Of a stretch of 64,000 nt of DNA, positions 36,732 through 53,739 are shown piece by piece. The DNA lies in assembly GCA_025830695.1 (NCBI GenBank), contig GCA_025830695.1_4111.2. The stretch is one strand, 5' to 3'. The first letter of the stretch is position 1. Each line of letters begins with the position of its first letter. The notes under the pieces were generated by a model, which was given only the letters and a program-made list of their open reading frames with translations, made no database searches and had not been told where the DNA came from. This DNA is from a phage. The position numbers were made by a program, and so were the translations under genes.

Positions 36732-36790
36732 TTGCAAACTATGTTTAAAGGCGTATAATGTTTTACATCGAGAGCGGGAACTCTTCCCGC
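36732..36790 (+). promoter_or_regulatory. PeSL-like cassette (TTGCAA-16-TATAAT + stem-loop)
   Basis: TTGCAA 36732-37, TATAAT 36754-59, hairpin GCGGGAA-CTCT-TCCCGC. Confidence 0.65.
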
Positions 36791-36814
36791 TACACTTTAA
36801 GAGAGATTAATACG

Positions 36815-37177
36815 ATGGCGACTCAAATCACTAAAATCATGCTTAACCTGGTAAACTTCCGCGAAGAGATGAAAGGTCTTCCGGCTGAAACTGTAAAAAT
36901 TCACATTGCAGCTTATCGGGAACTTATTGCAATGTTACCGCTTAAGCGTGAACAATACGCCGCTACTTTGATGCTTGATTCAATGATCCATGTAATGATC
37001 TCAAATGATTTGACGATGGTTTATCAGTACATGGGCGAAAATTTCGCGGTGTGTAGTAAACCAGTACCAGGGATGGCAACTACTGAGGAATTGCACGGCT
37101 TAAACTTAAAACAAGATGCATGGGATAATATGCCTCGTTTCCTGGTATGGGCTGACAGTGGCAAAATTTACAAATAA
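36815..37177 (+). CDS. hypothetical protein (120 aa)
   Basis: ATG after AAGAGAG SD; track ORF is promoter-derived extension. Confidence 0.6.
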   Translation: MATQITKIMLNLVNFREEMKGLPAETVKIHIAAYRELIAMLPLKREQYAATLMLDSMIHVMISNDLTMVYQYMGENFAVCSKPVPGMATTEELHGLNLKQDAWDNMPRFLVWADSGKIYK

Positions 37178-37191
37178 GTTTAATAAAGTAC

Positions 37192-37250
37192 TTGCAAACT
37201 ATGTTTAATGGCGTATAATGTTTTACATCAGGTGGGGAATAGTTCCCCAC
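37192..37250 (+). promoter_or_regulatory. PeSL-like cassette
   Basis: TTGCAA 37192-97, TATAAT 37214-19, hairpin GTGGGGAA-TAG-TTCCCCAC. Confidence 0.65.
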
Positions 37251-37270
37251 TATATAAGAGGATTAAAAAA

Positions 37271-37510
37271 ATGGCTAAATCAAAAATGTTCTTAGGTCAC
37301 AAAAACAAAACTCATTGGAATGTAAGCCTTTGGATTAATAACGATGAATCATTATACCGGTTGGCCCAGGACTTTATTAACGATAGCACTAATCGCAATG
37401 ATGCGGCCCGTCATATGATGTTATTTTTAGAACAGACTGGACAAGATAAAACACCGGACGGATTCAAATATAGCACTACTGCGATCCGTGCGGCGATGGT
37501 TGGAATGTAA
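37271..37510 (+). CDS. hypothetical protein (79 aa), paralog of 38509
   Basis: ATG after TAAGAGG SD. Confidence 0.6.
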   Translation: MAKSKMFLGHKNKTHWNVSLWINNDESLYRLAQDFINDSTNRNDAARHMMLFLEQTGQDKTPDGFKYSTTAIRAAMVGM

Positions 37511-37595
37511 TAGAATTTATTTAAAGTACTATCATTTTTTGCGATAGTACTTTATAATAGTGTTTTATTCATACACCAACGATAAGGGCAACAGC

Positions 37596-37859
37596 ATGAA
37601 TATTAAGTATTTTGCGACGCGTGAACAAGCTCGGATCGCCGCACGCCAGGACGGGGCAACGTTTAAAGATATGGGCGTACAATCGGAACGTGGTAAACGT
37701 TGGGCCATTGTAAAGCGTAGTACAGCCAGATCATTACAGTACTGGCTATCAGCTTTAAAAAGTCCTGCTAGTGTATCGCGACGAGTGGTAGAAATAAAGC
37801 TCGACCGTAAGGGGAATCGTGTTACCGTGTACCGTACTAAAAAGATAGCAGTACTATAA
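37596..37859 (+). CDS. hypothetical protein (87 aa), paralog of 48929
   Basis: Shared FATRE..ARI.AR and DRKGNRVTVY motifs. Confidence 0.55.
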   Translation: MNIKYFATREQARIAARQDGATFKDMGVQSERGKRWAIVKRSTARSLQYWLSALKSPASVSRRVVEIKLDRKGNRVTVYRTKKIAVL

Positions 37860-37867
37860 AAAAAGTA

Positions 37868-37926
37868 CTTGCAAACTAAGTTTAAAAGCGTATAATACTT
37901 TATATCAGGTGGGGAATAGTTCCCCA
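37868..37926 (+). promoter_or_regulatory. PeSL-like cassette
   Basis: TTGCAA 37868-73, TATAAT 37890-95, hairpin GTGGGGAATAGTTCCCCAC. Confidence 0.65.
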
Positions 37927-37946
37927 CTAAAGCAAGGAGTAAAAAA

Positions 37947-38177
37947 ATGACCAATATGTATATGACTGAAGTTAAAACCGTAAAAGATACTACCACTAAT
38001 AAAACTACTTACTTACAGCGGATCTGCGGTGTATGGCAACGTATCAGCAAATCAAAGTACTTTAAATTAACATCATATGCCAATCGTTCGGATTCATTCA
38101 GTACTGAAATAAAAGGTAATAAAGTACACCAATACGGCACTTATTATTATTACAGCCTGGACGCGATTGCAGTATAA
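37947..38177 (+). CDS. hypothetical protein (76 aa)
   Basis: AAGGAG SD. Confidence 0.6.
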   Translation: MTNMYMTEVKTVKDTTTNKTTYLQRICGVWQRISKSKYFKLTSYANRSDSFSTEIKGNKVHQYGTYYYYSLDAIAV

Positions 38178-38207
38178 GCAGTTTACAAATCTTTACAATT
38201 GCCGGTA

Positions 38208-38236
38208 TTGACTTATTTTGTCAGTACTGGCATAAT
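38208..38236 (+). promoter_or_regulatory. promoter (TTGACT-17-CATAAT) driving ORF-free leader with CCCATAGGGTGC element
   Basis: No ORF before next cassette. Confidence 0.45.
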
Positions 38237-38351
38237 GTATTCATTGGCAGATAAGCCGTAGCCCATAGGGTGCGGGAGTGTATCTATAGAAAAATTAGTT
38301 TAGTACAGTTACAATTGTGCACCCGGTGGGTTAGCTGTTGTCATGGGGTAT

Positions 38352-38380
38352 ATTATGCCAGTACTTGATAATGCTGTCAA
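38352..38380 (-). promoter_or_regulatory. minus-strand promoter (TTGACA-17-CATAAT), convergent with 38208
   Basis: Reverse complement of 38352-38380; transcript would carry CCCACCGGGTGC. Confidence 0.45.
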
Positions 38381-38424
38381 TACTTTTTTAATATTCAGTA
38401 CTGAAAACTATTTTTAAAAAGTAC

Positions 38425-38486
38425 TTGCAAACTAAGTTTAAAAGCGTATAATACTTTATATCGAGGCGGGGGAATGGTTCTCCCGC
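38425..38486 (+). promoter_or_regulatory. PeSL-like cassette
   Basis: TTGCAA 38425-30, TATAAT 38447-52, hairpin GCGGGGGAATGGTTCTCCCGC. Confidence 0.65.
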
Positions 38487-38508
38487 TCAATTAAACGAGG
38501 ATTTAAAA

Positions 38509-52181: not shown

Positions 52182-52227
52182 CTAAAACAAAGTATAATGT
52201 TTTGCATAGGGGGAGATATCCTCCCCC
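52171..52227 (+). promoter_or_regulatory. PeSL-like cassette
   Basis: TTGCAA 52171-76, TATAAT 52193-98, hairpin GGGGGAGATATCCTCCCCC. Confidence 0.65.
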
Positions 52228-52245
52228 ACTAAAAGGAGTACTAAA

Positions 52246-52470
52246 ATGGCTAACTTTGATGAACTGATGCGGGAAGTAGCTAACCTGGCAGAAGAGAAGA
52301 AATCATTCGATTCTATCTATAACACCGCTCATCGTGATTCAGTACTGGCATGTACTCAGGATCAAAAAGATGAACTAATCGCCACATATCATGAAGCATG
52401 GAAGTACTACCGCCAATGGGAGAAAGAAGAAAGCGAGTCTACCATCAACGGCATCAATAATCTAATCTAA
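52246..52470 (+). CDS. hypothetical protein (74 aa)
   Basis: AAAGGAG SD. Confidence 0.6.
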   Translation: MANFDELMREVANLAEEKKSFDSIYNTAHRDSVLACTQDQKDELIATYHEAWKYYRQWEKEESESTINGINNLI

Positions 52471-52488
52471 AGTTTTATTTCAGTACTA

Positions 52489-52517
52489 TTGACATAGCTT
52501 GATAGTACTGATATGAT
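52489..52517 (+). promoter_or_regulatory. promoter (TTGACA-17-TATGAT)
   Basis: Upstream of 52546 gene. Confidence 0.5.
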
Positions 52518-52545
52518 AACTTTACTAACTACAAGGGGAAACATC

Positions 52546-52803
52546 ATGGAACAATTCACACAATATCGGGTAAATCCTCAAGCTATGGCCTACGTAGAAG
52601 ACCATAAAACGTTACCAGTACTGCAACCAGTTAAAGGCCATATCTATCGTGCGATGGCGTGGAGTACTGCCCAGGATGGCTATAAAACCGTTGCCGTTGG
52701 TATGTACTGCGGTAATGGTGAATGGTTTGATCCAAATAATCCGGTAGCAATTAACAGTACTGAAAAAATGAAATGGGCCGACTACATCGAAGATATTTCA
52801 TAA
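52546..52803 (+). CDS. hypothetical protein (85 aa)
   Basis: ATG after AAGGGGAAA. Confidence 0.55.
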   Translation: MEQFTQYRVNPQAMAYVEDHKTLPVLQPVKGHIYRAMAWSTAQDGYKTVAVGMYCGNGEWFDPNNPVAINSTEKMKWADYIEDIS

Positions 52804-52810
52804 AAACTAT

Positions 52811-52871
52811 TTGACAGTACTAACCAGTAATGTATAATGTTTTACATAGAGCGGGGGAATAGTTCTCCCGC
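52811..52871 (+). promoter_or_regulatory. PeSL-like cassette (TTGACA-16-TATAAT)
   Basis: Hairpin GCGGGGGAATAGTTCTCCCGC. Confidence 0.7.
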
Positions 52872-52893
52872 CAATAGTTTGGAGTAAAACATT

Positions 52894-53094
52894 ATGTCTA
52901 TCGCTCTCGCCCTGGTTGAAGTACTGAAAGAAGCTAAAGCCAACCTTATCGATGTACAGATTAAGGAATTGCAAAATGGTTTAATCGGCTGTACTTGTAC
53001 CGCTGGTGGAGCGGCAGACTATCGAGAACACGAATCACTAGAATCGTTGGTCCGGTATCTTACAATCATCGTAGAAGATTGGAGAATCATCTAA
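52894..53094 (+). CDS. hypothetical protein (66 aa)
   Basis: GGAG SD. Confidence 0.55.
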   Translation: MSIALALVEVLKEAKANLIDVQIKELQNGLIGCTCTAGGAADYREHESLESLVRYLTIIVEDWRII

Positions 53095-53111
53095 CAAAAA
53101 AGAATAAAAAA

Positions 53112-53136
53112 GGGATTGACTCCGGTCAGTCCCTTT
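53112..53136 (+). terminator. intrinsic terminator variant GGGATTGACTCCGGTCAGTCCC + TTTG
   Basis: Third copy of this variant. Confidence 0.7.
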
Positions 53137-53223
53137 GCTATTATATACGCATAGACAAAAACTAGCCCACAGGGTGCATAGGTGTATCTAAAATATATAG
53201 TTAATAACGGTGAGTAACTATCT

Positions 53224-53231
53224 GCTGGTGG
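53224..53231 (+). other. Chi-like octamer GCTGGTGG
   Basis: Intergenic, downstream of conserved element at 53161. Confidence 0.45.
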
Positions 53232-53337
53232 AGTGAAAACTATTAATAAAAAGTATTGACAAAGTATATCAGTACTGCAATAATGTATCTCGTAGGGCGG
53301 CAATGGTGCGACGGTCCACAAAGTTAGGAGATTCAAA

Positions 53338-53670
53338 ATGAGTACTTCAATCGCTATCGTTAAAGCTTTCATCCGTACCAATGTTTCATCTGTATTCATC
53401 GACGGTCTGGATCGGGAAGTAGAATACTCAATCATTATCGCACAGACTGCAAACGGTGCTCGGTATATCCTTAATGATAGTGAAGCAAATCACTACTACT
53501 TCACTAAAGCTACTGGCTTTAAACGCATCGATGCTGACGTAGTATACGCTAAGATGAATAAGCTGGTAGACAAGATTAACGCGAAAGGTACTATCGATTT
53601 ACAGTACTGGACCGAAACCGATCCAGAATATGGTTCTCACCGCTATCTGAATCCAGGTATTAAAATGTAA
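53338..53670 (+). CDS. hypothetical protein (110 aa)
   Basis: TTAGGAG SD. Confidence 0.6.
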   Translation: MSTSIAIVKAFIRTNVSSVFIDGLDREVEYSIIIAQTANGARYILNDSEANHYYFTKATGFKRIDADVVYAKMNKLVDKINAKGTIDLQYWTETDPEYGSHRYLNPGIKM

Positions 53671-53677
53671 AAAGTAC

Positions 53678-53739
53678 TTGCATAGTACTTAGAATCAAGT
53701 ATAATGTTTTACATAGAGAGGGGGAAATGGTTCTCCCTC
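53678..53739 (+). promoter_or_regulatory. PeSL-like cassette
   Basis: TTGCAT 53678-83, TATAAT 53700-05, hairpin GAGGGGGAAATGGTTCTCCCTC. Confidence 0.65.

Follow-up and report, generated by a model that had tools for sequence, protein, structure and literature searches.

Promoter-early stem-loop (PeSL) elements are known from the T4-like phage pairs RB49/phi1, PST/T4 and nt-1/KVP40, where they mediate insertions and deletions and where the stem has been interpreted as a terminator (Arbiol 2010, PMC2839356; Comeau 2014, PMC4122927), in RB49 as one acting on upstream transcription (PMC2839356). A comparable arrangement is present in a 64,000-nucleotide (nt) stretch of phage DNA (GenBank assembly GCA_025830695.1, contig GCA_025830695.1_4111.2; referred to below as the window), in which an initial annotation had flagged positions 36,732 to 53,739 as an array of about 27 cassettes, each with a promoter and a stem-loop in the 5' untranslated region (5'UTR), and had matched them to the PeSLs of T4-type phages. 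The array lies within the putative direct terminal repeat (DTR) of a jumbo phage, and the explanation that we prefer, and consider probable, is that it is made of promoter/5'-protecting hairpin/Shine-Dalgarno (SD) cassettes that double as recombination sites.

The match to PeSLs held in part, namely for the promoter/stem-loop units in front of small orphan genes and for the shuffling, while a terminator role was not supported and the position of the stem differed. In both cases a sigma-70-like promoter, an AT-rich block, a stem of G-run, loop and C-run, an SD and an ATG form an intergenic unit of ~100 bp; the units are clustered among small orphan early genes in hyperplastic regions, the junctions of insertions, deletions and replacements fall within them, and half or degraded copies occur. 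[quoted passage not shown] The window hairpins further differ in having no T-rich tail and no sequence similarity to T4-like PeSLs. The array belongs to a Rak2-like jumbo phage, not to a member of Straboviridae, and fills a DTR, and its cassettes and genes are common to several phage families, whereas PeSLs are common only to close pairs.

By analogy, the nearest functional counterpart would be the T7 phi10 leader, which, when retrieved and folded, forms GGGAGACC-acaac-GGUUUCCC from position +1. Together with the ompA and papA leaders it shares with the cassettes a single stable 5' stem-loop, an unstructured A/U-rich linker and a strong SD, and the phi10 stem has the same polarity and length, its ACAAC loop recurring in several cassette copies. 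It differs in that the hairpin sits at +1 and is made late by T7 RNA polymerase, whereas the cassettes would be read by the host polymerase from a predicted start that may leave 0-6 nt unpaired. In its general layout, the array resembles the first-step-transfer DNA of T5 and the terminal redundancy of SPO1, with many small genes of unknown function on a long terminal repeat, one direction and strong host-type promoters; the terminal repeat is presumably the first DNA expressed. We know of no description, for T5 or SPO1, of a uniform promoter/5'UTR-hairpin/SD cassette that is repeated 20-30 times as a recombination site. Integrons are likewise arrays of single-gene cassettes with conserved imperfect inverted repeats between them and a content that varies among close relatives; here, however, neither an integrase nor an attC-type single-strand site is present, every cassette brings a promoter of its own, and the junctions look like those of general homologous recombination.

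The cassette array and its place in the genome

Asteriusvirus jumbo coliphages were the only high-identity matches in megablast searches with 36.7-44.7 kb and 34-56 kb of the window; they include PBECO4, 121Q, G17, vB_Ec-M-J, BF17 and SP27, with genomes of 350-385 kb. The closest records are classified under Caudoviricetes and Asteriusvirus, not under Straboviridae, and by sequence identity the source phage is an Asteriusvirus, a Rak2-like jumbo myovirus of the PBECO4/121Q/G17 group. The attribution to a T4-type phage had to be given up in view of this taxonomy; the array lies in a DTR, and the cassette gave no match to T4-like phages. No single record covers more than 57% of the 22-kb region, and the matches are split in up to 15 pieces (megablast). 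In a local megablast, window position 35086 corresponds to position 1 and ~54595 to position 21525 of the vB_Ec-M-J repeat, the homologous DNA of vB_Ec-M-J falling within its annotated 21,525-bp Direct Terminal Repeat, and we infer that the flagged stretch is most of the phage's own DTR (35,086-54,595). For fEgEco12, a DTR of ~21 kb was established by restriction digests (PMC13070987).

35086..54595, + strand: putative direct terminal repeat (immediate-early region), containing the entire cassette array (local megablast to vB_Ec-M-J)

The repeat in the window is 19.5 kb long and carries ~45 small genes, mostly orphan and all in the same direction. Their products of 44-194 amino acids have PHROG/Pfam matches that are nearly all of 'unknown function'; a DksA/TraR zinc finger, a GNAT acetyltransferase and a weak kinase-like protein are the exceptions with an assignable product, and no recombinase is found among the PHROG/Pfam matches of the array genes. 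Over the whole window, Rfam at the gathering threshold gave 0 matches and ARAGORN 0 tRNAs.

A position-weight matrix built from the copies themselves and run over both strands of the window returned 28 cassette-type sigma-70 promoters, all on the + strand between 35,473 and 53,700 and all within the terminal repeat, and a single weak match on the - strand. A generic sigma-70 scan of 35-55 kb gave 10 perfect TTGACA-N16/17-TATAAT and ~13 TTGCAA-N16-TATAAT sites, each with an A-rich block upstream. The parts named in the initial annotation were all found as described there, i.e., the A-rich block, AGTACTTGCAA or TTGACA, CAGTACTG in the spacer (10/28 promoters), TATAAT, GTTTTACAT and a GGGGAGAA-loop-TTCTCCCC hairpin, and its coordinates match exactly the span that opens with the -35 box of the first cassette and closes with the 3' end of the last hairpin. 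Its count of about 27 fits the promoters (~28); full cassettes, with promoter, short hairpin, SD and ATG, number 22. Behind two further promoters (-10 at 40850 and 47996) stand long non-coding leaders in place of the short hairpin, promoter 35473 has a different, non-G-rich stem downstream, and three promoters (39329, 45339, 46453) are hairpin-less, as is a TTGACA-type promoter at 48112 outside the position-weight list. A covariance model from 28 distinct copies recovers the known cassettes and one more beyond the flagged stretch (11,217-11,251). The full cassettes are as follows, with each hairpin written as 5' arm, loop and 3' arm.

36718..36817, + strand: cassette; -35 TTGCAA 36732; -10 TATAAT 36754; hairpin 36773-36791 (AGCGGGAA ctc TTCCCGCT); ATG 36815
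37178..37273, + strand: cassette; -10 37214; hairpin 37231-37251 (GGTGGGGAA tag TTCCCCACT); ATG 37271, of a DUF7249 gene paralogous to the gene at 38509
37855..37949, + strand: cassette; -10 37891; hairpin 37908-37928, stem identical to that of the 37214 cassette; ATG 37947
38411..38511, + strand: cassette; -10 38447; hairpin 38465-38487 (GGCGGGGGAA tgg TTCTCCCGCT, with G.U pairs); ATG 38509; homology-block overlap at 38413-38471
39554..39648, + strand: cassette; -10 39590; hairpin 39608-39627 (GGGGAGAA atgg TTCTCCCT); ATG 39646
40020..40112, + strand: cassette; -10 40056; hairpin 40070-40090 (TAGGGGGAG cgg TTCCCCCTG); ATG 40110
40338..40433, + strand: cassette; -10 TACAAT 40374; hairpin 40394-40410 (GGGGGAG cgg TTCCCCC); ATG 40431
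41650..41749, + strand: cassette; -10 41686; hairpin 41704-41725 (GAGGGGGAA acgg TTCTCCTTC, 2 G.U pairs); ATG 41747; gene common to Vequintavirinae phage W70 (85% nucleotide identity)
41970..42064, + strand: cassette; -10 42006; hairpin 42024-42043 (GGGGAGAA atgg TTCTCCCT); ATG 42062
43449..43544, + strand: cassette, used as database-search query; -10 43485; hairpin 43503-43522 (GGGGAG aaatagta CTCCCC); ATG 43542
43678..43772, + strand: cassette; -10 43714; hairpin 43732-43751 (GGGGAGAA atga TTCTCCCC); ATG 43770
44276..44371, + strand: cassette; -10 44312; hairpin 44331-44349 (AGGGGAAA cgg TTTCCTCT); ATG 44369
44711..44806, + strand: cassette; -35 TTGACA; -10 44747; hairpin 44765-44783 (GGGGAGAA tag TTCTCCCC); ATG 44804
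46834..46919, + strand: cassette with weaker -10 TATAGT (46870); hairpin 46887-46905 (AGGGGAA acatc TTCCCCT); ATG 46917
47106..47199, + strand: cassette with TTGACA-type promoter; -10 47142; hairpin 47160-47179 (GGGGAGAA atga TTCTCCCC); ATG 47197
48416..48512, + strand: cassette; -10 48452; hairpin 48470-48488 (GGGGGGAA tgg TTCCCCTC); ATG 48510
50968..51064, + strand: cassette; -35 TTGCAT; -10 51004; hairpin 51023-51042 (AGGGGGAA atgg TTCTCCCT); ATG 51062
51273..51370, + strand: chimeric cassette; -10 51309; hairpin 51327-51345; ATG 51368
51822..51917, + strand: cassette; -10 51858; hairpin 51876-51896 (GCGGGGGAA tag TTCTCCCGC); ATG 51915
52157..52248, + strand: cassette; -10 52193; hairpin 52209-52227 (GGGGGAG atatc CTCCCCC); ATG 52246
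52797..52896, + strand: cassette with TTGACA-type promoter; -10 52833; hairpin 52851-52871 (GCGGGGGAA tag TTCTCCCGC); ATG 52894
53664..53762, + strand: cassette; -10 53700; hairpin 53718-53739 (GAGGGGGAA atgg TTCTCCCTC); ATG 53760

Three partial or outlying copies accompany them.

38765..38806, + strand: half cassette with hairpin (GGCGGG-tgtggtt-CCCGCC), SD and ATG but no promoter, which is still present in its counterpart on IMG/VR contig L129
49347..49389, + strand: promoter-less, terminator-like hairpin of the same stem type (GGCGGGA-tcagt-TCCCGCC), followed by TTTTTT, SD and ATG
11187..11260, + strand: isolated cassette outside the repeat, with TTGACA-N16-TATAAT and hairpin GGGGATGAAC..(C)TCATCCC

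In the 22 cassettes, the stems are 6-10 bp long, with a G-rich 5' arm and a C/T-rich 3' arm, and the loops have 3-8 nt, mostly 3-5 nt. The 5'UTRs of 20/22 cassettes were folded alone and reached -7.9 to -15.7 kcal/mol, with z-scores down to -3.1; in all 20, a single hairpin forms near the 5' end and the SD region stays free of pairing. Computed on 48-nt windows, the 22 cassettes range from -10.6 to -16.4 kcal/mol. A strong hairpin follows within 47 nt downstream of 23/28 promoters, compared with 2.9 +/- 1.5 in dinucleotide shuffles (at most 7 in 200 shuffles); of 47-mers drawn at random from the window, 11% qualify by this test. Promoters and hairpins are present far above chance. The distances from the -10 box to the stem (12 +/- 2 nt) and from the stem to the ATG (20 +/- 2 nt) are kept across five phage groups, and given the former the stem is transcribed and belongs to the cassette's own 5'UTR. 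Both distances are equally tight and favour anchoring neither to the promoter nor to the ATG. A conserved CAT stands 7-8 nt after the -10 box, and with its A taken as +1, the predicted start leaves 0-6 nt, typically 4-5, unpaired at the 5' end. The ATGG and ATGA loops include an ATG, in some cases in the reading frame of the gene downstream, which is why mechanical ORF starts fall inside hairpin loops at 39616, 42032, 43740, 48477 and 53727; the SD-preceded ATG 21-33 nt downstream of the loop ATG is the plausible gene start.

Covariation and possible function of the hairpin

That the stems vary between copies and stay complementary, as had been noted from the letters alone, was borne out by alignment. 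Gap-free, equal-length, loop-centred segments of 28 distinct hairpins with seven pairs were compared (a MAFFT alignment of whole 5'UTRs was dropped for pair counts, because it left the 5' arms of copies with 3-nt and 4-nt loops out of register). All 196/196 cells pair, compensatory changes are seen at 6/7 pairs, G-C, C-G, A-U, U-A and G-U are all found at the same positions, and 0/500 shuffles attain the observed score; with the 3' partner slid, pairing falls to 48-70%. A larger set consists of 114 covariance-model matches, 91 of them distinct, from 10 sources, i.e., the window, four other Asteriusvirus loci, two Vequintavirinae, one Phapecoctavirus, Klebsiella phage K64-1 and an Erwinia jumbo phage. 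In these 91 copies from five phage groups, compensatory changes again affect 6/7 pairs, with 81 doubly changed cells and 0/500 shuffles reaching the score, and 97.8% of the cells pair, a percentage that like the 100% of the smaller set is inflated because a pairing search had been used to pick the seeds and the larger alignment was fitted to the model; the variety of pair types is not inflated by either procedure. The stems of K64-1 (GGGAATGAA/TTCATTCCC and GGAGATTCCA/TGGAATCTCC) are unrelated in sequence and occupy a comparable position, 14 +/- 4 nt past the -10 box, which gives independent support for the covariation.

Many copies are near-identical (71 distinct hairpins among 141 instances) and the shuffle control ignores relatedness, both of which could favour the notion that a functionless hairpin hitch-hikes in a recently amplified repeat, its covariation being inherited from a few ancestral types. 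This is hardly credible, since five pair types occur at single positions, including flips from G-C to C-G and to U-A, since the structure is kept with unrelated stem sequences in the K64-1 and Erwinia phages, and since the slid-partner controls, which do keep relatedness, drop to 48-77% paired over both alignments. The kind of mismatch tells at which level the structure is kept. With symmetric scoring of the interior positions of 75 distinct stems, G.T mismatches number 21, with the G always in the 5' arm, vs. 4 for A.C plus C.A. A duplex-DNA palindrome would tolerate both kinds equally and sense RNA only G.U, so that the hairpin is selected in the transcript, as a sense-strand RNA structure and not as a duplex-DNA palindrome.

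For the cassette as a whole, we propose a self-contained unit of ~95 bp that would serve most genes of the array. It would consist, in this order, of an A-rich block resembling an UP element, a near-consensus promoter for host sigma-70 (AGTACTTGCAA or TTGACA, 16-nt spacer, TATAAT), a start at CAT, an RNA hairpin ~5 nt into the transcript, a ~8-nt unstructured linker, an SD and the ATG. The hairpin might shield the 5' end of early mRNAs against RppH/RNase E-dependent decay and, in the manner of the T7 phi10 and ompA leaders, insulate the ribosome site from the adjoining gene; on read-through transcripts, it could possibly be a barrier between cistrons. Both RppH and RNase E are blocked by 5' secondary structure (review PMC3997798). 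The step that makes the hairpin a 5'-end-protecting, ribosome-site-insulating element is drawn from analogy and is put forward tentatively, with less confidence than the explanation of the array as a whole. The T7 g10 5' stem-loop reportedly stabilises mRNA, as Mertens et al. are said to have found in 1996. The stems of 6-10 bp are too short for an RNase III site, a reading that was set aside, and a conserved loop of the lambda nut/boxB type was not seen in the cassettes, where loop length (3-8 nt) and sequence vary freely.

Several points weigh against this role or against the explanation around it, in addition to the inflated pairing percentages given above and the recombination ambiguity taken up below. 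The +1 is inferred only from the CAT 7-8 nt past the -10 box. The 0-6 nt that this start leaves unpaired at the 5' end are at the upper limit of what was reportedly protective in the classic ompA experiments. The equal spacing to the ATG, which the promoter-less hairpins 38765 and 49347 keep, makes a role in translation or between cistrons equally compatible; the purine/pyrimidine polarity of the arms goes beyond what pairing needs and hints at a sequence-specific reader; and strong termination was measured for a PeSL stem that has no classic U-tract either (Arbiol et al., PMC2839356).

The last point bears on the classical PeSL function, in which the stem-loop terminates or attenuates transcription from the upstream cassette, each gene would be transcribed chiefly from its own promoter, and the location of the stem-loop in its own 5'UTR is incidental. 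[quoted passage not shown] However, a terminator scan of 35-55 kb found 22 terminator-like sites, with none of the + strand cassette hairpins among them: 0/22 cassette hairpins carry a T-rich tail, and for lack of a U-tract they are not canonical intrinsic terminators, whereas hairpin-plus-T-run sites occur nearby (39873, 40748, 41483 and 49347), the first three being canonical sites used elsewhere in the region. A terminator placed 5-30 nt past the strong promoter of its cassette would act on the transcripts from that promoter as well, and the RB49 stems lie inside the promoter, not in the transcript. We consider a terminator unlikely.

Less likely again is that a phage or host protein binds or cleaves the hairpin RNA and in this way times early expression, for example as a translational repressor or a nuclease of early mRNAs in the manner of T4 RegA/RegB, with a joint shut-off of all early genes. 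In keeping with it, the arms are strongly polar (GGGGAGAA / UUCUCCCC) and conserved past the pairing requirement, many 5' arms contain GGAG, the SD/ATG spacing is fixed at 20 +/- 2 nt and retained by the promoter-less hairpins, and the same hairpin recurs in unrelated phages. On the other hand, the loops are not conserved (tag, atgg, atga, cgg, acatc, atatc, ctc), the K64-1 stems differ in sequence, many stems are without GGAG, and no candidate protein was found among the array genes, which by PHROG/Pfam are nearly all of unknown function.

Recombination at cassettes and exchange among phages

Near-identical cassettes in direct repeat would allow homologous recombination to delete, insert and reassort single genes, and the initial annotation had suggested modular gene shuffling. 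In agreement with this, the gene content of relatives differs at the cassettes. Against four relatives, the ends of homology blocks form 50 clusters, 30 of which lie within cassette intervals amounting to 20% of the repeat (binomial p about 8e-10), although preferential recombination is not separable here from the survival of intergenic recombinants, because cassettes fill most of the intergenic space. Another 5/50 clusters lie in other promoter elements and most of the rest at terminators or half cassettes, and adjoining homology blocks overlap by 60-100 bp exactly on cassettes. At 48.4 kb, the one cassette of the window (48416-48512) faces two near-identical ones in vB_Ec-M-J that flank an extra 60-codon ORF (EcMJ_036). 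The cassette at 51.3 kb is a chimera: on its left it is the same as the cassette that lies upstream of EcMJ_044 in vB_Ec-M-J, on its right the same as the one downstream, with the crossover in the linker between hairpin and SD. Both sites are clean insertions or deletions of one ORF. An identical hairpin behind different promoter halves (43714 vs. 47142) points to exchange within cassettes too. By comparison with these relatives, recombination at cassettes is shown to delete, insert and reassort single genes.

Paralogous genes behind different cassettes had been seen as a further sign of such shuffling, and three paralogous pairs were confirmed (66%, 37% and 35% identity), at least two of them behind different cassette variants. 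The pair 37596/48929 stands on both sides behind a hairpin-less 'aaagtactat...atagtactttataat' promoter, which suggests that the promoter type can travel with the gene.

Because the cassettes clearly mark recombination junctions, a DNA-level element might be considered, i.e., an operator, a cruciform or a site-specific recombination site with RNA structure as a by-product; the PeSL authors left site-specific recombination open, and the spacer palindrome CAGTACTG shows that palindromes matter at the DNA level in this genome. We regard this as very unlikely. The excess of G.T over A.C plus C.A (21 vs. 4), with the G always in the sense 5' arm, contradicts it, the crossovers lie at differing places in the cassette, including the hairpin-SD linker, as general homologous recombination predicts, and no recombinase turned up among the array genes (PHROG/Pfam).

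The cassettes themselves reach beyond the genus. A 91-nt cassette query matched 75 phage records, among which Asteriusvirus records hold 10-28 copies each, or twice that when both repeat copies are in the record; further matches were to Rak2-like jumbo phages of Klebsiella, Salmonella, Erwinia, Serratia and Yersinia and to unrelated myoviruses of ~140-150 kb, those checked being Vequintavirinae or Stephanstirmvirinae. No T4-like phage was among the 75 records. Of the window's genes or elements, 7-9 recur in the Vequintavirinae W70 and A73, at 68-89% nucleotide identity and differently ordered. In Phapecoctavirus nepoznato, the 32-nt 5'UTR of the 44747 cassette is found unchanged, with another promoter upstream of it and an unrelated gene downstream. 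Comparison thus shows the same cassettes and genes circulating among Asteriusvirus, other Rak2-like jumbo phages, Vequintavirinae and Phapecoctavirus. A scan of IMG/VR with TATAATGTTTTACAT was too unspecific, returning 120 contigs that were mostly unrelated and AT-rich, of which only L017, L025, L080 and L129 held cassettes. L025 (IMG/VR contig 3300007747_000009, 108.9 kb) has three promoter-hairpin-SD cassettes in 11.5 kb, and L017, a contig of 359.8 kb, has five in 9 kb; both contigs are from uncultivated viruses.

A bolder version of the preferred explanation, doubtful in our judgement, would make the cassette a portable cross-family 'expression plug': single early genes would ride on one promoter/hairpin/SD unit and be exchanged cassette-to-cassette among virulent phages of enterobacteria that are unrelated to each other (Rak2-like jumbo phages, Vequintavirinae and Stephanstirmvirinae), the terminal repeat would be an integron-like but recombinase-free array, the polar hairpin would be read by a dedicated co-regulating factor, and the AGTACT palindrome maybe by a DNA-binding factor. 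If the preferred explanation is true, modular shuffling of the PeSL type extends from close T4-like pairs to jumbo phages and to cross-family exchange, and the cassettes would explain the mosaic ~20-kb terminal repeats of Asteriusvirus genomes. The cassette would be a compact natural expression unit of UP element, consensus promoter, 5' hairpin and open ribosome site, and the array would define the immediate-early gene set, with almost no known functions, of a phage group used in therapy studies. Such cassettes are not described in the genome papers of Asteriusvirus and Rak2-like phages that were consulted; among these, the CBB genome paper predicted RpoD-like promoters with UP elements and no stem-loops, and the others do not mention promoters (including PMC13070987).

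Further promoters, repeats and leaders of the terminal repeat

A third class of promoters, which is hairpin-less, has TTGACA-N17 with TG, followed by CATAAT, TATGAT or AATAAT, typically as 'ttgacaNNNttgatagtactgGCATAAT'. In the generic scan, a TG before the second hexamer was flagged only for the GCATAAT and TATTAT promoter classes; an extended -10 reading of CAGTACTG-TATAAT was rejected, the TG being at -14/-13, one position off the TGn motif.

42294-42322, strand not given: third-class promoter (generic sigma-70 scan)
45046-45074, strand not given: third-class promoter (same scan)
45840-45868, strand not given: third-class promoter (same scan)
52489-52517, strand not given: third-class promoter (same scan)
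53256-53284, strand not given: third-class promoter (same scan)

A separate repeat, family B, has eight copies in total with a TTGAC(T/A)-N17 promoter and an extended -10 box.

44140-44262, 47837-47959, 50833-50955 and 53099-53221, + strand: the four main copies of family B
38196-38310 and 45828-45940, + strand: family B variants
38285-38392 and 39905-40012, - strand: family B variants

In four copies (44150, 47847, 50843 and 53109), a 12-bp stem-loop, AAAGGGATTGAC-tccg-GTCAGTCCCTTT, covers the -35 box, as in RB49, with a T-rich tail behind it, a layout that is classical for PeSLs. Some 30 nt downstream stand an invariant CCCAYMGGGTGC and TCTAT, and two pairs of copies face each other (38.2/38.38 kb). 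As a structured RNA, family B was rejected (RNAalifold -4.5 kcal/mol, no covariation).

AGTACT is the commonest hexamer in 1-64000, with 275 copies vs. 21.6 expected (12.7-fold), and CAGTACTG has 59 copies vs. 0.68 expected in the whole window. The ORFs hold 166 copies of AGTACT, in all three reading frames, vs. 50 +/- 6 after synonymous-codon shuffling, and per kb the motif occurs 3.3 times in coding and 8.1 times in non-coding DNA. It shares letters with the -35 box (AGTACTTGCAA) and directly adjoins the -10 box (CAGTACTG-TATAAT), likewise in K64-1 and the Erwinia jumbo phage. The excess points to selection at the DNA level, perhaps for a binding or modification site; a literature search gave nothing relevant on AGTACT over-representation or on promoters of the G17 terminal repeat. 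A long inverted repeat with CAGTACTG at both ends (CAGTACTGATATTAACAGAATGGTGTCAGTACTG) occupies 35608-35641, ~500 bp inside the putative left end of the repeat. Twelve six-base palindromes, mostly GC-rich, are absent from the window (CGATCG, CCATGG, AGGCCT, AGCGCT, GGGCCC, GGCGCC, GCGCGC, GCCGGC, CGGCCG, CGCGCG, CCGCGG and CCCGGG), with 2 to 6.5 copies of each expected, which is compatible with restriction-site avoidance.

The two long leaders mentioned with the promoter inventory are arranged as follows.

40814..40978, + strand: cassette-type promoter (-10 TAGAAT at 40850) and 118-nt non-coding leader
47960..48150, + strand: cassette-type promoter (-10 47996), ~80-nt structured non-coding RNA and second, hairpin-less promoter (-10 48112), with ATG at 48151

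Both non-coding leaders (80-120 nt; 40857-40963 and 48003-48109) contain an ACGGGG...CCCCGT hairpin and a TAAGTAG motif. The elements are conserved in other Asteriusvirus, in the Vequintavirinae W70/A73 (88-89% identity) and in Erwinia phage Hallingskeid, and the leaders are candidate early small RNAs.

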